A stretch of 64,000 nt of DNA from Minisyncoccia bacterium (GTDB taxonomy: Bacteria > Patescibacteriota > Minisyncoccia > Phycocordibacterales > PALSA-1337). Positions 10,100 to 64,000 of the stretch are shown piece after piece; the first letter of the stretch is position 1, and the number at the start of each line of letters is the position of its first letter. Under the pieces are notes generated by a model that did no database searches, had not been told where the DNA came from, and saw only the letters and a list, made by a program, of their open reading frames with translations. The stretch spans positions 65,664 through 129,663 of the forward strand of contig JBEKVT010000002.1 in NCBI GenBank assembly GCA_049997795.1, written 5' to 3'. The translations under genes and the position numbers were made by a program.

Positions 10100-10182
10100 G
10101 ATAGCGGAGCTTTCGGTGGCGTCGTGATCGTAAACGATCACGACATCCTACCGAAATATAGTCACTTCGTTCCTTATTTCGG

Positions 10183-10253
10183 TGGACCTAGGGGGAGTCG
10201 AACCCCCGCCTCGGCAATGCGAATGCCGCGTAATACCACTTTACTATAGGCCC
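10183..10253 (-). tRNA. tRNA-Ala (anticodon CGC)
   Basis: The reverse complement GGGCCTATAGTAAAGTGGTATTACGCGGCATTCGCATTGCCGAGGCGGGGGTTCGACTCCCCCTAGGTCCA has a G3:U70 pair, anticodon loop TTCGCAT and T-loop TTCGACT. Confidence 0.75.
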
Positions 10254-10371
10254 CAGCGAGGTGCGAAATGAATATACCATGTCCATTCCGTCCGAGCGAC
10301 AGGCCTATATGAGCTAAGCGATCATAGGCCCGGCCGCCGCCTGCGGGTGCTTCTTGGCGGCTCTTTCAATG

Positions 10372-10442
10372 TCGGGGCGCCGAGAATCGAACTCGGACCT
10401 CACGCACCCGAAGCGTGTATACTACCACTATACTACGCCCCG
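10372..10442 (-). tRNA. tRNA-Pro (anticodon CGG)
   Basis: The reverse complement CGGGGCGTAGTATAGTGGTAGTATACACGCTTCGGGTGCGTGAGGTCCGAGTTCGATTCTCGGCGCCCCGA has C1:G72 (a Pro hallmark), anticodon loop TTCGGGT with G37, and T-loop TTCGATT. Confidence 0.75.
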
Positions 10443-10444
10443 TG

Positions 10445-10517
10445 TGGACCATACCGGACTCGAACCGGTCACCTCACCCATGCCATGGGTGCGCTCTACC
10501 AGATGAGCTAATGGCCC
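10445..10517 (-). tRNA. tRNA-Ala (anticodon GGC)
   Basis: The reverse complement GGGCCATTAGCTCATCTGGTAGAGCGCACCCATGGCATGGGTGAGGTGACCGGTTCGAGTCCGGTATGGTCCA has G3:U70 and anticodon loop ATGGCAT. Confidence 0.8.
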
Positions 10518-10608
10518 GTCATTCTGGCGCCTCCACTCTATCATAATTTGATGATTTTTCAAGAATGCCGTAAGCTTGGGGACGTGCCGACCGATCGGCT
10601 CGCGATTC

Positions 10609-10682
10609 CGGGCTGTAGTATAGTGGTAGTATACATCCATGGGGTGGATGCGGTCCGGGTTCGATTCCCGGCAGCCCGACCA
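10609..10682 (+). tRNA. tRNA-Pro (anticodon GGG), 3' CCA encoded
   Basis: CGGGCTGTAGTATAGTGGTAGTATACATCCATGGGGTGGATGCGGTCCGGGTTCGATTCCCGGCAGCCCGACCA has C1:G72 and anticodon loop ATGGGGT with G37. Confidence 0.8.
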
Positions 10683-10708
10683 GTGCGATTCGTTGGCGTG
10701 AATTATCA

Positions 10709-10782
10709 GCACCCTTAGCTCAGTCGGCTAGAGCGCGCCCTTCACACGGGCGAGGTCGCAGGTTCGAGCCCTGCAGGGTGCA
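10709..10782 (+). tRNA. tRNA-Val (anticodon CAC)
   Basis: GCACCCTTAGCTCAGTCGGCTAGAGCGCGCCCTTCACACGGGCGAGGTCGCAGGTTCGAGCCCTGCAGGGTGCA has anticodon loop TTCACAC. Confidence 0.85.
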
Positions 10783-10805
10783 CAACAAAAATAGGGGGAA
10801 ATAAA

Positions 10806-45405: not shown

Positions 45406-45735
45406 ATGAAAAAATATGCGGCGGGGAACAGGGGGCTCATCAAGATGATCCTGATCGTAGTCATAGCCCTGCTCATCTTGAGCTACTTCAACATCAATCT
45501 CCGCCAATTGGTCAATGCTCCGACCACCCAGGACAACGTCTCCTACGTGGCTTCCAGCACCGTCACCATCTGGGACAGCTACCTCAAGGTCCCGGCTACT
45601 TATCTTTGGAACAACGTATTCATCGACCTCATCTGGAACCCGGCCATAACCAATCTGACGAACATGAAGAACGGGGAGCCGACGAACATAAGCACTTCGT
45701 CGCCGACTCTGCCGTCTATACCGCTGGTGCAGTAA
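45406..45735 (+). CDS. Small membrane protein (109 aa)
   Basis: GGTATGAT lies 6 nt upstream of the ATG. TM helix LIKMILIVVIALLILSYF. Confidence 0.5.
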   Translation: MKKYAAGNRGLIKMILIVVIALLILSYFNINLRQLVNAPTTQDNVSYVASSTVTIWDSYLKVPATYLWNNVFIDLIWNPAITNLTNMKNGEPTNISTSSPTLPSIPLVQ

Positions 45736-45814
45736 GAATAAGGGGTTAGTGGATTAAAGTGCCAACAAGGTATATTGTACGACGTGGCATGTTTCAGTAA
45801 ATTAACTGGTTTGT

Positions 45815-46498
45815 TTATCCCCTGTCCTGTTTGTTTGGTTCAGCAGCTAATTCAAGCAGCACCGTCTTCTTGAAAAATTTCTCCGTCATCACACTGATGT
45901 TTTGTGGTAGTTTCTTATCCTTCCTTCTTATAAGCTCATCAATCTCCTTTTGATCTATCTTCTCATTATTTACAAGAACAAAGTAGATCTTTGAGTGGAT
46001 ACTAGAATATCGCTTCATTTTAATACTAACCACTCCCCCGAGAGACTTGATATCCTGAGCATAGAATAGGTCTATTACGATACCCTCGTTATCTGATTTA
46101 TAAATAAAGAAATCGCAACAAATATAGCCGGGCCGAAGAATTTTGTGTTCGTGTACCCTTACCTCCGGGATATTTGATATAAGATACCTATAAAAGCTTT
46201 CCTCATAATTTACAGCCTGTGAATGCGTTCTGCGCGCCACTGCAGCTCGATGTTCTCCCATGGTTAAATTAAGACCTGTGTTTAATGACAGTGCTTTTCT
46301 GACATTTGAAATGCCCTCGAAATTTCTTTGAATCAGCCTGGCTGACGGAAGATATTCAAAAGTATCAAAATCTTGGATTCTGGGATAATTACCATTCAAA
46401 GATTTGAAATACTCCATACCCTGCCTGATTTCCTCAAGAGTCCACTTTTGTTGGTGTCCGATTTTCTTTTTCTTATCTGGAATTATCATTGAATACAC
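45815..46498 (-). CDS. Homing-endonuclease-like protein: an N-terminal homing-endonuclease-associated repeat-type DNA-binding module plus a C-terminal PD-(D/E)xK-like nuclease core. It is encoded in an AT-rich islet.
   Basis: WTLEEIRQGMEYFKSLNGNYPRIQDFDTFEYLPSARLIQRNFEGISNVRKAL resembles the W.EEI...F....GR.P...DF...LPS...I.R.FGSW motif. Candidate nuclease residues are GYICCDFFIY...GIVIDLFYAQDIK. Codon usage and base composition are visibly AT-rich compared with the flanks. Confidence 0.5.
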   Translation of the reverse strand: MYSMIIPDKKKKIGHQQKWTLEEIRQGMEYFKSLNGNYPRIQDFDTFEYLPSARLIQRNFEGISNVRKALSLNTGLNLTMGEHRAAVARRTHSQAVNYEESFYRYLISNIPEVRVHEHKILRPGYICCDFFIYKSDNEGIVIDLFYAQDIKSLGGVVSIKMKRYSSIHSKIYFVLVNNEKIDQKEIDELIRRKDKKLPQNISVMTEKFFKKTVLLELAAEPNKQDRG

Positions 46499-46623
46499 TT
46501 TAACACATAATAATATAGACGTGATCGTTTCCCCTTCCTATAGGAAAAAACCTTATAGCCTTGAGTCCAATATCACAAAAAGCCCTACCCTTCCGGACAG
46601 GACCTTCCGCGGTTTATGATAAT

Positions 46624-47121
46624 TCACTTCCTGGCGAGATCTCCCGAACTTGACCAGCATTTTTCCGACGAGATCCACGGTTCTATCCCGTATTTCTCGT
46701 AAAGATGCTTGGCGAAAGCCACGTTCCCTTTGGTCTCGTATATGTCGTACCCCAGCTTGGCCGCCTCGGCGGCGTGATACTTCTCGTTGATCTGCATCAC
46801 GCCCACGTCGGCCGGGTTGGCCTCGCCGCGGATGGCCTTGCCGCCGCTTCCGTACTGGCGGAAGGCCGACTCGCAACGGGCGATGTCGACCAAGATCGGC
46901 TCGTCCGCGTATTGCTCGCGGACGTACGCTTCTATGTCTTTGGAGACGTCCAGGGGCTGGGCTTCGGCGGCCGTCGCCTGCTCCGCCTGCGGAGGAGCGA
47001 TGTCGGGAGCCGCCGCATTCGCCTGCCCCGCGCCGTAGAGCGAGGACATGAGGAATGCCGCACCTGTAGCTATTTCTATCATTTTCCAATTAAAAAACGA
47101 GCTTGCGAGCATGACGCTCAT
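46624..47121 (-). CDS. Secreted transglycosylase-like (Rpf/lysozyme-like) protein
   Basis: The signal peptide likely starts at the internal MIEIATGAAFLMSSLYGAGQANA. The motif DIARCESAFRQYG...NPADVGVMQINEKYH resembles the Rpf/transglycosylase-like CES...GhhQ core. Confidence 0.45.
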   Translation of the reverse strand: MSVMLASSFFNWKMIEIATGAAFLMSSLYGAGQANAAAPDIAPPQAEQATAAEAQPLDVSKDIEAYVREQYADEPILVDIARCESAFRQYGSGGKAIRGEANPADVGVMQINEKYHAAEAAKLGYDIYETKGNVAFAKHLYEKYGIEPWISSEKCWSSSGDLARK

Positions 47122-59018: not shown

Positions 59019-60623
59019 CTATACCTTCCCGAACGGTTCGATCTCGACGATGAAGGTGGCGCCCTTCCCTTCCCCGGCCGACTCGGCGCGGATCGTGCCG
59101 TGGTGGGCCTCCACCAGCTGTTTGGCCACGAAAAGGCCGAGGCCGGTGCCTTTGATGTTGACCTTCGAGGCGTTCTCGGCCCGGGAGAATTTCTGGAAGA
59201 GGTGCGGCAGGACTTTCGGGTCGATGCCGACGCCGGTGTCCTTGACGGCGAAGACGAAGAGGTGCCGCGGCCGGTCGAAGGCGAGAGTCACGGCGACCGA
59301 GCCGGACGGCGTGTATTTCATGGAATTGTCGATCAGGTTGGCGATGACCTGTTTGAATTTATCGCGGTCGGCGGTGATGCGGTAATCGATGTTGCTGTCC
59401 TCGGCGGTGAAGGAGAACTTGAGGCCGGCCTTCTCGATGTTCGGCTGGAGCTCGGCGATGACGTCTTCGATCAAGGTCTTCAGGTCAATGGTCTCGAAGT
59501 TGTACTTCATGGTGCCGAGTTCGATCCTGGAGACGTTCAGATAGTCATCGACGATGCTGACCAGGGTGTTGGTCGAATCGAAGATGTGCCGGATGCCGTC
59601 AAGGGCTTGCCGGCCGAGCTCCCCCATGTCGCCCTCAAGAAGGAGCGAGGCGTAGCCTTTCATGGCCGAGAGAGGGGCCCGCAGCTGATGCGTGGCGAAG
59701 GATATGAACTCCGACTTCTGCCGGTCCAGCTCCGTCAGCCGCTCGTTCGCCTTCTCCAGGTCATCCGCCAGCTTTTGGATGCGCTCGCGTTGAAGAACTT
59801 CTTTAATAACACTTCGAATTAAGAAAACACCCGTAATTATGACTAAAACAAAAAGAATCCCGTTTATAATAATATCTTCGAATGAAATCGAAAGCAGTGT
59901 CCTGACAAAGATAAAAATGGAAAGTGCAAAGACCAACAATTCGGTTGCGATAACCTTTATGTTCAAAAAGTGTAGTTTCAATATTGCATAAGCCGTGAAG
60001 CCGACAAATAAAATCAAGCTTGGCGCATCAAGGAGGGTAAAGTCAAAAACATTAAAATATACAGGCAATATAACGCTGAATGATAGAGCTGCAAGGCTAT
60101 AAGATGAAACCCCAAGAAGGATGAACCTTAATTGTAATTTTGATATTCCTGTAGCCTTCTTTTGGGCTTGATATATAAGATAAATAAACGAACAGATGTA
60201 AAGCAGAAAATACAGCGCGTATATTGTGAAGAATGGCCCTAAATGACCTTGATAACCTAGCACGGTCAGACGATCAATTCCACTGACAACATATCCGTCT
60301 AAATAACAAATAGCGAAGAGGAAAATGCTGGGTATAAAAATGCCTATTTTTTGCCACAGTGGAATTCTTTTTAAATCAATGTTACATATTTCAAGAATCC
60401 AGATTAGGCCGGTTAGTGGTACAAGTGTCGTAAACGCATAACTGCTTCGTAGAATAATCAGGGTTGGGTAGAATCTGAACAAATAATCAAATATGATGGA
60501 AATGACTGTGCTAAGACTAAATACAGCAAAACCATAATTTAATCTTTCATTCGGTTTTCGTAACCAGACTATCAACCCAAGAAAAAGGTTGAGTATCCCG
60601 GATAATAAGATAATGACAGACAT
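59019..60623 (-). CDS. Sensor histidine kinase with an N-terminal polytopic (7TM-receptor-type, HisKA_7TM-like) sensor domain. The sensor part is AT-rich and the kinase core GC-rich.
   Basis: About 8 TM helices over the first ~270 aa, then a coiled-coil linker (QRERIQKLADDLEKANERL), an H-box FATHQLRAPLSAMKGY, an N-box LIDNSMKYT, G1 VKDTGVGID and G2 GTGLGLFVAKQLV. The nucleotide composition switches near 59800. Confidence 0.85.
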   Translation of the reverse strand: MSVIILLSGILNLFLGLIVWLRKPNERLNYGFAVFSLSTVISIIFDYLFRFYPTLIILRSSYAFTTLVPLTGLIWILEICNIDLKRIPLWQKIGIFIPSIFLFAICYLDGYVVSGIDRLTVLGYQGHLGPFFTIYALYFLLYICSFIYLIYQAQKKATGISKLQLRFILLGVSSYSLAALSFSVILPVYFNVFDFTLLDAPSLILFVGFTAYAILKLHFLNIKVIATELLVFALSIFIFVRTLLSISFEDIIINGILFVLVIITGVFLIRSVIKEVLQRERIQKLADDLEKANERLTELDRQKSEFISFATHQLRAPLSAMKGYASLLLEGDMGELGRQALDGIRHIFDSTNTLVSIVDDYLNVSRIELGTMKYNFETIDLKTLIEDVIAELQPNIEKAGLKFSFTAEDSNIDYRITADRDKFKQVIANLIDNSMKYTPSGSVAVTLAFDRPRHLFVFAVKDTGVGIDPKVLPHLFQKFSRAENASKVNIKGTGLGLFVAKQLVEAHHGTIRAESAGEGKGATFIVEIEPFGKV

Positions 60624-60626
60624 GAT

Positions 60627-61697
60627 TTATACAGATATAAATTTATTAACAAAATTCCTTCCTAGTATATTCCCCATAATATCCCCAGACGTCTCTCCGT
60701 TATTGCATTTCTTCGCGGCCAGATATACACATCCTATGTTGTAAGCAATTCTATTGTACAGGGCATCCGATCCAAAGATAAGTTTTGAGCTTGGTATTAT
60801 ATTAAGAGTTCTTGAAATGACTGACGTGGACACGCCTGAGGTATCGAAAAACAGATTGCTGTATTTATCACTCAGTTTCTTTATCAAACGATAATCAATG
60901 TTAACCATACCGTAATGACCTATGTGGGCAATAATGACCTTTATGTCATAAGCGCTCAGAAGTTCACTGGCTCCATCTTTATCACAGAAATTTTCTAGTA
61001 AACCATTTGTCCTACTTCGTTCGATATAACCGTATTTCCTGTTTATCTTAAGGGTATAATTTGAAATGCCGCCGTGGAACAAAACATAAAGTTTGTATTT
61101 GGCGGCAGTCTCGTATATCTTGCGGAGTTTTTTTGCAATCTCATCGCCGTTTTTATATGGTTCTGGTTTGAAATTCTGAAGATTGGGGTGAAATTTAAGT
61201 CCAACAATATGGTAATTATCTACATACGACTTTATGGTGGATTCGATTTCTGAAAGATTGATGTTGTGGATGTCGACGGAACCAAGAAGCATAAATCTAG
61301 TATCCTGAGAATATTTTTTACCGACGTTTTCTGTCGGCGCCCATGGGTCGAGAGACAAAAGAATGCTTTTATCGGCTAGTGATGCTTCCATTTCTTCAAG
61401 GATTCGATCAGCATTAGTTTTTTTGTAAGTATGCTCAATCATAGAGAACACACTCCTAGGAAAAAGTTTAAAGTACAATCGTGATCCTATCTTTTCAAGT
61501 TTACTGTAATTAAATTTTTCTAAAATTCCTGGGCTCAAATAATCTTCGTGGCAGCATTCATCGACAATTTCTTCATAATGGACAACGCCCATAACGTCAA
61601 TCGGGTGAATGTGAGTGTCAATGATCCGAAAACTTAAATCATTTTTTAGTTTTCGTACATCTTTTAGGACCTCTATAATTTGTCTTTTGTACATCAA
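60627..61697 (-). CDS. Metal-dependent amidohydrolase-2-family (TIM-barrel) hydrolase
   Basis: IIDTHIHP (HxH metal ligands), FHGG, AHIGH and FGSDA. It lies 3 nt from the sensor-kinase gene and overlaps the upstream gene by 4 nt. Confidence 0.65.
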   Translation of the reverse strand: MMYKRQIIEVLKDVRKLKNDLSFRIIDTHIHPIDVMGVVHYEEIVDECCHEDYLSPGILEKFNYSKLEKIGSRLYFKLFPRSVFSMIEHTYKKTNADRILEEMEASLADKSILLSLDPWAPTENVGKKYSQDTRFMLLGSVDIHNINLSEIESTIKSYVDNYHIVGLKFHPNLQNFKPEPYKNGDEIAKKLRKIYETAAKYKLYVLFHGGISNYTLKINRKYGYIERSRTNGLLENFCDKDGASELLSAYDIKVIIAHIGHYGMVNIDYRLIKKLSDKYSNLFFDTSGVSTSVISRTLNIIPSSKLIFGSDALYNRIAYNIGCVYLAAKKCNNGETSGDIMGNILGRNFVNKFISV

Positions 61698-62908
61698 AAT
61701 CCTATTTCGCTTTTAATTTCTTTTAGATTTTCAATCAGGACGTTAATCTGTTCCTTTGTGTGTGCGGTTGACACGGTCGTGCGCAGGCGAGCCTTGCCTT
61801 TCGGTACGGCCGGCCAACGAGCTGCAGGAATGAAGATGCCGCGCTCCAGGAGCTTGACGCTGGCATCCATAGCCTTTTTCTCATTTCCTATAAAAATGGG
61901 TATTATCTGCGTTCTAGAATTGAGGAAATTGATTCCGATATTCGCTAATTGGTCTTTCATATATAGCGCATTGGCAAGTACTTTCTCTCTCCTCCAGGTC
62001 TCCTCGGTTGCGATCTCGATCGACTTAATCAGACCACAGACCACCGGGGGCGCGATCGGCGCCGTGAAGATGAATGAGTCAGAAGTTATTTTGAGATAAT
62101 CGACCAAATCTTTTGAACCAACCACGAAACCACCGACCCCGCCAAAACATTTGGTGAATGTCCCCATAATCACATCGACTTGCCCTTCAACGTTGTAGTA
62201 GTCTTCGACTCCTCGGCCGTGCGGGCCAAGGATGCCAGTGCCGTGAGCATCATCGAGATAAACGATCGCTTTGTATTGTCTCGCTTGTTCAAGTATCTGG
62301 GGTAGCGGAGCGATGTCGCCATCCATACTAAAAACTCCGTCCGTCACAATCATCTTTCTTTGGGATACGGGATAATTCTTCAGTTTTTCCAGTAAGTCAT
62401 TAATGTCCAAATGCTTGTAGATCTCTTTCTTCGCACCGCTCAATCGTATACCGGCGATGGCACTCGCGTGATTGTACTCATCGCTGAAGATAATTGTGTC
62501 TTTATCTTTCGCGATTTTTTCGCTGAAGAGCGACGCCAGAGAAAATTTCGGGACATTGACTAATGCCGGGATGGTGCCGGAGTTTGCCATGTATCCAGAG
62601 ACGAACGACACTGCCGCTTCCCTGTGTTTGAACGCAGCGATTTTTTCTTCCAACTGATTATGAATCTCAAGATTGCCGGTCAGGAGACGGGCGCTGCCAT
62701 TACCGATACCCCATTTCCTTGCTCCTTGAACAGCCGCCTCGATAACACGTGGATCTGTCATCAAATCCAAATAATTATTAGTCGCGAACATTAAGACCTT
62801 TTTTCCGTTGACTACAACTTCTGGAGCATGCGGCGAAGATACTACGGGCGGGTACGGGTAAAAACCATGTTTCTTAATGAAATTTACCGCTTGAGAAAGA
62901 CTTTTCAT
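61694..62908 (-). CDS. PLP-dependent alpha-oxoamine synthase family enzyme (BioF / Kbl / serine palmitoyltransferase / CqsA-type)
   Basis: Fold-type I PLP enzyme. DDAHGTGILGPHGRG and GTFTKCFGGVGGFVVG (PLP lysine in TFTK). The length of about 404 aa is typical for this family. Confidence 0.8.
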   Translation of the reverse strand: MKSLSQAVNFIKKHGFYPYPPVVSSPHAPEVVVNGKKVLMFATNNYLDLMTDPRVIEAAVQGARKWGIGNGSARLLTGNLEIHNQLEEKIAAFKHREAAVSFVSGYMANSGTIPALVNVPKFSLASLFSEKIAKDKDTIIFSDEYNHASAIAGIRLSGAKKEIYKHLDINDLLEKLKNYPVSQRKMIVTDGVFSMDGDIAPLPQILEQARQYKAIVYLDDAHGTGILGPHGRGVEDYYNVEGQVDVIMGTFTKCFGGVGGFVVGSKDLVDYLKITSDSFIFTAPIAPPVVCGLIKSIEIATEETWRREKVLANALYMKDQLANIGINFLNSRTQIIPIFIGNEKKAMDASVKLLERGIFIPAARWPAVPKGKARLRTTVSTAHTKEQINVLIENLKEIKSEIGF

Positions 62909-63022
62909 GACTTCATTTTAACATTATCTGGTAATTTTTGCGTGTTGGATATGTGGGTAGAAATCTTATAGATGACGCGCGTAACAGATTTCTGAATTAC
63001 CTTGGTACCTTATCTTGATATA

Positions 63023-64000
63023 ATGAACGGCGTGGTTATATCAGCATATGTTGTAATCATCTGGACTGCTGCTGTACTTATTGGCAGTCTAGCTCTAGTT
63101 ATATTTCTAGGTAACAACAAACCTTCTTCGAGGGCTTTCGCCTTTACTATATCCATAGTCACCTTGTGGACAATGAGTGTTGGGCTTTTTACAGCTTCAA
63201 GGGATCCGAATCTTGCTGAATTTTGTATAAAGATGAATTTTTTCCTTGGGAGCGCTATAGCCTCATCATTTTTATATTTTTTCTTCACATTTCCTTACGA
63301 CAAAAGGCCTAACCATAAACTTGCCTTGTCTCTTGTAATGCTCCAACTTATTTTCTTATATTTATATTTTTTTACGAATATCATTGTATATGGACCAGTC
63401 CCATTAACAAATCCTTCTTCTGCTATTTGGTGGGGATGGGGATTGGGTCCAGGATATTTTGTATATAACCTATTCTTTTTCGGTTTTTTCTTGACCGGAA
63501 TCGTACTCTTATATCATAGATACCGTTTAACCAAAGATTATTCTCAAAAGAATAATCTAAAATACATGTTGTCAACAGTGATTATAGGCCTAATCCCGCC
63601 AACGCTTTTTAATCTAATTTTACCTCCATTAGGATATTTTGGTCTTAATTGGGTTGGACCAGCCAGTGGTATGTTCTGGGTACCGATTATGGCCTATTCC
63701 ATCATCCGTTATCATCAAATGAATGTACGGGTGGTGGTTACAGAGGTGCTGGCCATCGGTATGGCGTTCATTTTCTTCATGGACATCTTTATCACGATGT
63801 CGTTCGGTATTTGGGGGCGTATCGGTACCTTCGGGGCTTTCCTTGTTTTGAGCGCATATTTGATTCGCGGTGTTCTCCGGGAAGCTAAGCAGAGAGAACA
63901 GCTCGACGATCTAAACCGAAATCTCGAGCAGAAAGTCGCCGATCAGACGGTGGAGATCAGGAAGTCGTACGAAGCAGAGAAACATGCCCGCGCGGAATTG
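63023..64000 (+). CDS. Second sensor histidine kinase-like protein, 5' part only (runs off the window). It has a polytopic 7TM-type sensor domain paralogous to that of 59019-60623.
   Basis: An open frame from ATG 63023 with no stop before the window end. The start codon is uncertain because the -10-like TATAAT (63019-63024) overlaps this ATG. LVIFLGNNKPSSRAFAFTISIV resembles LIVWLRKPNERLNYGFAVFSLS of the first kinase. After the last TM helix the sequence becomes GC-rich and enters a coiled-coil linker (REAKQREQLDDLNRNLEQKVADQ). Confidence 0.6.
   Translation, partial: MNGVVISAYVVIIWTAAVLIGSLALVIFLGNNKPSSRAFAFTISIVTLWTMSVGLFTASRDPNLAEFCIKMNFFLGSAIASSFLYFFFTFPYDKRPNHKLALSLVMLQLIFLYLYFFTNIIVYGPVPLTNPSSAIWWGWGLGPGYFVYNLFFFGFFLTGIVLLYHRYRLTKDYSQKNNLKYMLSTVIIGLIPPTLFNLILPPLGYFGLNWVGPASGMFWVPIMAYSIIRYHQMNVRVVVTEVLAIGMAFIFFMDIFITMSFGIWGRIGTFGAFLVLSAYLIRGVLREAKQREQLDDLNRNLEQKVADQTVEIRKSYEAEKHARAEL

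Follow-up and report, generated by a model that had tools for sequence, protein, structure and literature searches.

Why does a short, AT-rich gene stand alone between two conserved genes, what does its product do, and how did it reach that position? These questions are raised by a locus of a Minisyncoccia bacterium (Patescibacteriota; contig JBEKVT010000002.1 of assembly GCA_049997795.1, positions 65,664 to 129,663 of the forward strand; this whole stretch of 64,000 nucleotides is referred to as the window). The gene, here called NUC, is the sole open reading frame (ORF) of an AT-rich islet. With slightly better than even confidence, we read the islet as a single-gene accessory cassette that is lodged at a dif-like (Xer-type) site, encodes a two-domain endonuclease, and was placed there via Xer-type recombination. 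The reading is built on the composition of the islet, an empty site in relatives, the domain architecture and fold of NUC, its adjacency to the site, and the use of the same site by inoviruses in the manner of integrative mobile elements exploiting Xer (IMEX); from these we infer the involvement of Xer, the activity and target of the nuclease, and the route of transfer.

The islet and its gene are delimited as follows.

45733–46581, no strand: AT-rich islet, the maximal AT-rich segment, with a G+C content (GC) of 0.373 (~0.37 vs. 0.57 for the remainder of the window)
~45786–46565: the segment truly inserted relative to empty sites, from DNA alignment with three NUC-less relatives, in which homology stops after 45785 and restarts at ~46566
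45815–46498, minus strand: NUC gene, sole ORF of the islet, 227 aa from GTG at 46498 (224 aa from ATG at 46489 in public records)

The first-pass annotation, made by eye, had described a sharp drop in GC over ~45740–46560, A/T-ending codon choice, and a single ORF, and all three were borne out by calculation. The GC in 200-nt windows was 0.35–0.41 across 45800–46599 and 0.52–0.70 in the flanks; the span 45740–46560 had a GC of 0.378, compared with 0.574 ± 0.031 for same-size windows elsewhere (z = −6.4). The islet limits were taken from a likelihood-ratio maximal-segment scan of the 64-kb window, in which the islet ranked second among the AT-rich segments, the strongest being 59790–63727. The GC at third codon positions (GC3) was 0.40 for NUC, with A/T-ending codons, and 0.75–0.84 for all eight neighboring genes. 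Amino-acid content does not explain this codon bias, because one of these neighbors, a membrane protein gene, has an F/Y/N/K/I content equal to that of NUC and yet a GC3 of 0.79. The same protein is found in public records as a 224-aa hypothetical protein of a Minisyncoccia metagenome-assembled genome. No terminal inverted repeats, target duplication, transposase, or recombinase were found in the islet.

The islet separates two conserved, convergent genes, whose 3′ ends are 79 and 125 bp from NUC on either side.

45406–45735, plus strand: small membrane protein gene (public records give 109 aa), kept beside the M23 peptidase gene in relatives
46499–46565, minus strand: upstream non-coding part of the islet, with the palindrome CCTATAGG and −10-like hexamers TATATT and TATTAT read from the sequence
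46566–46623, no strand: chromosomal spacer 3′ of the SLT-like gene (CACAAAAAGCCCTACCC...), common to the empty sites and marking the right edge of the insertion
46624–47121, minus strand: SLT/lysozyme-like gene, 165 aa, with NUC downstream on the same strand (Pfam SLT at E = 0.003, under the cut-off)

A comparison of the locus with close relatives, which the annotation had proposed, revealed empty sites. Four closest relatives (M23 identity of 63–69%) had no NUC and retained the order GltX-M23-membrane protein, followed across the spacer by SLT-L27-L9-CtpA-CorA; their spacers were 54–201 bp long, and their flanking proteins were 58–79% identical to those of the window. The empty site was established from DNA for three of these relatives (L038, L039, and L040) and from gene calls for the fourth. 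Since the three relatives with DNA keep the gene order without NUC, an empty site exists, and NUC is polymorphic for presence and absence at one site between related genomes. The islet is best supported as an accessory single-gene cassette of ~0.78 kb in the convergent spacer, where it abuts the outside of one arm of a dif-like (Xer-type) site. The segment 46499–46565 had no counterpart in the empty sites by DNA alignment and presumably carries NUC's own promoter; a consensus promoter scan of the NUC strand returned nothing at its threshold. A metagenome scan with the M23 protein for further close relatives retrieved only distant loci, L035 among them.

Two details of the empty loci were recorded separately. 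The empty-site spacer (L038 8663–8773; L039 8654–8854) contains a G+C-rich hairpin (AAAGGCCCCACCC...GGTGAGGCCTTT) 3′ of the SLT-like gene, of which only a degraded version is retained at the right edge of the islet (window 46573–46604). The NUC-less L038 has, between L27 and L9 (9834–10469), a 211-aa ORF for which no Pfam match is recorded; this ORF is lacking in the window, and the L27-L9 gap is far shorter in L039 and the P0050 relative, so that the gap looks like another variable spot.

The setting that the first-pass annotation missed is a dif-like site at the left edge of the islet.

45758–45785, minus strand: dif-like site of the window in half or hybrid form (ACGTCGTACAA-TATACC-TTGTTGGCACT), 30 nt downstream of the NUC stop codon

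A 15-mer at this edge (45771–45785) is identical in the NUC-less L038–L040. Taken from these relatives and searched with up to three mismatches, it had a match no more than 300 nt from NUC in 21 of 27 other loci, against an expectation of 0.93 (binomial P ~5e-26). Most NUC loci had a full 28-bp form, of which the 15-mer is the left half; its consensus from 18 loci (ATGTCGCACAA-TATATC-TTTTACGACAT) is a quasi-palindrome in which 11-bp arms with dyad symmetry flank a 6-bp center. This 11-6-11 layout is that of dif (PMC5357621), and the site agreed with E. coli dif at 17 and with B. subtilis dif at 16 of the 28 positions (compared by hand; dif sequences from PMC3025954). Three loci fetched later, and thus outside the building of the matrix, all had the site 54–90 nt after NUC. 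The distance between NUC and the site was 30–285 nt, with at most one full site per locus examined, and in 18 of 21 loci NUC lay on the side of the left arm, as do the inovirus prophages described below. The orientation of NUC relative to the site differed between clades, and genes converged on the site in most loci, which is a terminus-like setting. NUC-less loci have the site as well: it is full in L035 (39.9 bits), and its left arm and central region are kept in L038–L040 (32.3 bits in L040). In the window, the left arm and central region (45769–45785) are conserved and the right arm is degenerate.

Two other interpretations of site-like sequences were rejected. The motif is not a general promoter, as its three other 3-mismatch matches in the window lie in a promoter spacer or inside genes, and an apparent half-site at 46565–46580 is a chance match homologous to empty-site sequence. 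Extra arm-like half-sites were observed 0.2–0.8 kb from the full site in six loci (L017 2674–2684, L018 11392–11402, L025 1229–1239, L028 9618–9628, L029 9826–9842, and L034 3645–3655), as expected if repeated recombination events occurred there.

NUC was found in two neighborhoods, one of the Paceibacteria type (L27...M23-GltX) and one of the Saccharibacteria type (after FtsW-MurG-FtsQ-like), and the latter slot is also used by viruses. A degenerate 24-mer of the site matched 24 IMG/VR contigs (L041–L064), which carry Zot ATPases above the Pfam cut-off and a G2P-type rolling-circle Rep and have no integrase. On four contigs of 9–11 kb (L057, L060, L062, and L064), a prophage of 5.2–5.9 kb (e.g., L057 2193–7633) has a full site at one end and a hybrid site at the other, and the two sites have the left arm and central region in common. 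Such a pair is the hallmark of elements exploiting Xer recombination at dif. The prophages are inserted after MurG-FtsQ-like, the position of NUC in Saccharibacteria-type loci. The recurrence of NUC beside one conserved dif-like site that integrase-less inoviruses also use favors site-specific (Xer-type) lodging over classical homing.

The prophage hosts are oral Saccharibacteria-type genomes, and relatives of a prophage DUF2726 protein are named as Nanogingivalaceae. This protein (PF10881, of the PD-(D/E)xK clan; 175 aa; L057 6994–7521) is encoded by the prophage gene nearest the hybrid attachment (att) site. Its motifs are in register with E99, H116, D129, and D143 of NUC in an alignment that was not significant (hhalign E = 0.087, probability 0.7%, 106 columns), and HMMER gave no match of the NUC family to DUF2726. 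As a lead, elements at this site may recurrently carry a nuclease gene beside their attachment site. Prophages of TM7, including matches from an inovirus detector, have been reported, and the available part of that report mentions no att or dif site for them.

The NUC protein is predicted to consist of two domains.

46289–46444, minus strand: N-terminal helical module of the PF18780 HNH_repeat type (aa ~19–70; helices 21–35, 41–46, 53–60, and 63–69)
45842–46258, minus strand: C-terminal PD-(D/E)xK-like nuclease domain (aa ~81–219; candidate active-site residues E99, H116/E117, D129, D143, and K160)

The N-terminus had been annotated as a homing-endonuclease-associated repeat, and this held for the family but not directly for the window protein, which did not match PF18780 even at E ≤ 1. 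The Pfam name is HNH_repeat ("Homing endonuclease associated repeat"), not HEARO as the annotation had it. PF18780 (gathering score of 26 bits) was matched by 5 of 38 and 50 of 123 NUC family members (best E = 7e-6), and P0183, which has a NUC-like architecture, scored 30.3 bits. Positions 12–73 of the NUC family profile also matched 8–17 tandem repeats in four proteins (P0194, P0200, P0219, and P0274) that themselves score 89–134 bits for PF18780. Membership of the module in PF18780 is therefore supported at the family level, as a sequence-based assignment via transitive homology, and the module is predicted to bind DNA; extra helix-turn-helix (HTH) domains occur in some family members. The four repeat proteins are 600–1300 aa long, and their 8–17 tandem PF18780 modules overlap PMBR and LexA_DNA_bind matches. 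P0199 (363 aa) has an RNase H/RVT_3-like domain fused ahead of the full NUC architecture.

For the C-terminal region, the annotation had claimed PD-(D/E)xK-like residues; the fold and two of the residues, D129 (in CDFFIY) and D143 (in IVIDLFY), agreed with this, but no nuclease Pfam family was matched. The AlphaFold2 model (mean predicted local distance difference test score of 89.9) comprised a four-helix N-terminal module (21–69) and a C-terminal core in the order helix 81–109, strands 115–117, 130–133, and 139–145, helix 150–164, and strand 170–175 (alpha-beta-beta-beta-alpha-beta). The leading Foldseek matches in the Protein Data Bank (PDB) were all PD-(D/E)xK nucleases (Bax1, Can2, Card1, SfsA, McrC, NucS, and EcoO109I), and matches among the BFVD viral models were endonuclease-like phage proteins. 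Judged from the model, the C-terminal domain has a divergent PD-(D/E)xK nuclease fold that is covered by no Pfam family. Sixteen residues were invariant in 38 homologues of ~50% identity (R58, G62, E99, L106, H116, E117, H118, R122, G124, D129, Y133, G139, D143, F145, Y146, and K160); in 123 sequences, D129 was invariant, and H116, D143, F145, and K160 were at least 90% conserved. The strand-3 lysine position of the motif is occupied by F145, and a conserved lysine, K160, is on the next helix, which makes this a variant motif. Like Bax1, Can2/Card1, McrC, NucS/EndoMS, EcoO109I, and DUF2726/Vsr-like proteins, NUC has the predicted core fold with acidic residues on helix 1, strand 2, and strand 3; unlike them, it has its lysine at K160 rather than on strand 3, and it shares no significant sequence or profile match with them. 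The modeled fold and these conserved residues suggest that NUC is a nuclease. The window protein had no significant match in Pfam or PHROGs (best E of 0.04 and 0.067, respectively).

In the mechanism that we propose, the PF18780-type module would supply DNA recognition, and the PD-(D/E)xK domain (E99, H116/E117, D129, and D143, with K160 from the following helix) would supply Mg-dependent cleavage. The cassette would reach and keep its position by recombination at the site via the host Xer-type recombinase, in the manner of IMEX elements and of the dif modules of Acinetobacter. The recognition module and the position of NUC suggest that it would act on or close to such dif-like sequences, where it might take part in a conflict among elements competing for the site. 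Xer-mediated placement explains the recurrent position, the lack of an own recombinase, the side shared with the inoviruses, and the hybrid-like half-site. A narrower version is doubtful, being clearly less probable than the placement itself: a dif-directed enzyme whose PF18780 module reads the 28-bp site or recombination intermediates and whose PD-(D/E)xK domain cuts there.

Among known systems, the IMEX elements (CTXphi, VGJphi, and TLCphi of Vibrio and the gonococcal genetic island; PMC5357621) resemble the cassette in that it adjoins a 28-bp 11-6-11 site without encoding a recombinase and occupies the side of the site at which the integrase-less inovirus prophages of related bacteria integrate. 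The cassette differs from them in being a single gene of ~0.8 kb with no replication or virion genes, in being flanked by only one recognizable site, and in that no free or circular form or vehicle was found. The plasmid dif (pdif) modules of Acinetobacter, as described in the available parts of PMC6449649 and PMC7399989, are likewise small one- or few-gene cassettes positioned by Xer-type sites without their own recombinase; they differ in residing on plasmids between two pdif sites and in carrying a resistance or toxin–antitoxin gene, whereas the NUC cassette is chromosomal, adjoins one site, belongs to a different phylum, and carries a nuclease. Insertion sequences of the IS1202 family (ISAjo2) that target the dif/pdif flank are also mobile elements positioned a few bp outside one Xer-site arm; according to the available part of PMC10132070, they encode a transposase and have terminal inverted repeats, whereas the NUC cassette has neither and no target duplication.

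The observations that weigh against Xer-mediated placement of a nuclease cassette concern the site, the protein, and the family. The window site was the top match of the position weight matrix in the 64-kb window at 17.2 bits, compared with 32–45 bits for full sites; being only a half-site, as in the NUC-less relatives, it makes current Xer activity there doubtful. The site was absent nearby in 4 of 28 loci. Its dyad symmetry lies in the outer arm positions, with only three inner pairs (7–12/17–22), and canonical dif requires more than four (PMC3025954). The GC skew dropped across the site in ~11 of 19 loci, not including those of the window's clade. A crude motif search of the 64-kb window found no Xer or DnaA gene. 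No locus had a second (hybrid) site on the far side of NUC within 900 nt, and Xer-mediated placement leaves this missing site unexplained. As for the protein, the Foldseek E-values were weak (1.4e-3 at best, up to 0.1), and sequence and profile searches of the PDB gave no link to any characterized nuclease (profile E > 1). At the family level, the window NUC was no outlier from the GC3 trend given below (z = −1.8), and pairwise NUC identity was flat at ~50% at any host distance, equal to or above that of neighboring housekeeping genes. No homologue was found on phages, plasmids, or IMG/VR contigs, so that no vehicle is known, and a mini-circle origin of the short NUC contigs was rejected, as they carry chromosomal neighbors and are chromosomal fragments.

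The distribution of the family was determined by an exhaustive profile search, which retrieved 797 clusters (E ≤ 1e-3; 50% identity), mostly of 200–230 aa and the same architecture. NUC homologues were present in 22 of 185,579 species genomes (<0.02%), all labeled as Patescibacteria groups (Paceibacteria, Saccharibacteria, Taylor-, Lipton-, Morani-, and Doudnabacteria), and formed 39 clusters, compared with >3198 orthologues of the neighboring M23 peptidase. In 17 of 25 host loci, no segment had a lower GC than NUC, and the GC3 of NUC was under that of every host ORF of at least 200 aa in 20 of 23 loci, while tracking host GC3 (r = 0.79, slope 0.48). AT-richness that follows host composition is a known pattern for mobile elements of limited host range. 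Because AT-richness is a family-wide trait, the composition of the islet alone cannot date its arrival, and because the window copy lies on the family trend, a recent arrival is not proven. Owing to the identity plateau at ~50%, phylogeny, including the congruence of NUC and flanking-gene trees, neither shows nor excludes transfer. Two NUC copies (L033 10001–10536 and L034 4233–4752) are probably pseudogenes, their coding sequence being split between frames.

The annotation had regarded NUC as a selfish nuclease of foreign composition; the composition is indeed foreign-looking, but it is family-wide. A free-standing homing endonuclease, which would cleave chromosomes lacking NUC at the conserved site or close to it and be brought in by double-strand-break repair against a NUC-bearing copy, is unlikely in our assessment, even though much of the locus suits it: a lone nuclease ORF with a DNA-binding module of the homing-endonuclease-associated type; a harmless intergenic placement, a patchy distribution with no copy in the closest relatives, and AT-richness in every host; an adjoining ultra-conserved sequence that is a good potential target; and disrupted copies (L033 and L034), as the invasion–decay cycle of homing genes predicts. 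The free-standing homing genes of phage T4 (seg and mob) are likewise lone AT-rich nuclease ORFs in intergenic spacers absent from close relatives, and the NUC module is named for its association with homing endonucleases. They differ from NUC in the catalytic domain, which is PD-(D/E)xK and not GIY-YIG or HNH in NUC, and in that the candidate target persists intact beside NUC. The full 28-bp site is intact beside the gene in most bearers, and the host would be cut if this site were the target; past the left arm, the sequence varies among NUC-less genomes and offers no other candidate. Moreover, the flanks are entirely different between the two neighborhood types, so that repair copying cannot explain spread between clades, and the searches detected no resemblance of NUC to known PD-(D/E)xK homing enzymes.

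To a solitary defense nuclease (Type IV-like or an orphan restriction enzyme), for which adjacency to the site would be a by-product of the dif region acting as a sink for acquired DNA, we assign a similarly low probability. The predicted fold, with its matches to McrC, EcoO109I, Can2/Card1, and phage "restriction endonuclease" models, is compatible with it, as are weak HSDR_N_2 and DpnII-MboI matches in a few members. Restriction genes are typically AT-rich, and modification-dependent enzymes need no partner gene. One homologue (L007) is located among DpnI-like, RelA_SpoT, and NUDIX genes with no site nearby. However, the window protein had no match in PADLOC (0 matches), and no methyltransferase or defense gene is a recurrent neighbor, the recurrent neighbors all being housekeeping genes. 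A generic sink would also hold varied cargo, and one gene 30–285 nt from the site, on the same side and in two unrelated neighborhoods, would be unexpected.

An old, vertically inherited gene with a housekeeping role linked to the terminus or dif (e.g., junction resolution), lost in most lineages and AT-rich through its amino-acid make-up and weak expression, is less probable still. The genomic position is conserved across distant Patescibacteria; the identity of NUC, comparable to or above that of MurG, L9, and M23, points to purifying selection; its GC3 follows host GC3; and the closest host pair (L017/L021) has the same NUC location. This explanation has to account for a gene held by <0.02% of species genomes against thousands of relatives with the flanking genes and absent from all four closest relatives examined. 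The GC3 deficit of 0.1–0.4 at synonymous sites is far beyond amino-acid effects (GC3 of 0.79 in the similar neighbor), the orientation to the site differs between clades, and disrupted copies exist.

A CdiA-CT tRNase-type toxin or a toxin–antitoxin nuclease that cuts RNA and not DNA is very improbable: weak PF18664 CdiA_C_tRNase matches in 7 of 38 members (best E = 0.013) and an E...D...D...K spacing with the lysine in a later helix, which we take to resemble the Burkholderia CdiA-CT active site, are set against the lack of an immunity or antitoxin ORF (the flanking spacers being only 79 and 125 bp), the lack of a delivery domain, scores that were all under the Pfam cut-offs, and the N-terminal module and extra HTH domains, which point to DNA binding.

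Other features of the window lie apart from the islet. The larger AT-rich island at 59790–63727 (3.9 kb, GC 0.39) extends toward the window end and spans the N-terminal half of a histidine kinase gene (59019–60623), an Amidohydro_2 gene (60627–61697), and a class I/II aminotransferase gene (61694–62908). The only known RNAs detected in the 64-kb window were tRNAs, none of them in the islet: a cluster of five on both strands (Ala, Pro, Ala, Pro, and Val; 10181–10783) and a separate tRNA-Ala (2782–2856) with a promoter-like site (TTGGTT-18-TATAAT) upstream.

Returning to the reading of the islet as a cassette lodged at a dif-like site, one lesson is that what looks like a "foreign-composition islet" may reflect a trait of the whole family and not a recent arrival. 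The searched literature contained nothing on the function of PF18780 and nothing on dif in Patescibacteria. Patescibacteria (the candidate phyla radiation, CPR) make up a large share of bacterial diversity, and their mobile elements and chromosome-maintenance sites are almost unknown. The site described here is a concrete, testable candidate dif/Xer site for this group, and the filamentous prophages that lack an integrase offer natural reporters of how it is used. NUC represents an uncharacterized nuclease family (~800 clusters at 50% identity) with a position linked to this site. Action of the nuclease on the site, if it occurs, would connect nucleases with elements that exploit Xer; the literature examined describes no such connection for IMEX or dif modules. 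If it is dif-directed, the enzyme could place or hold the cassette next to dif, or else eliminate competing elements that integrate at dif, inoviruses being one example. In either case, the NUC family would be the first example of a conflict system around the chromosome dimer-resolution site.

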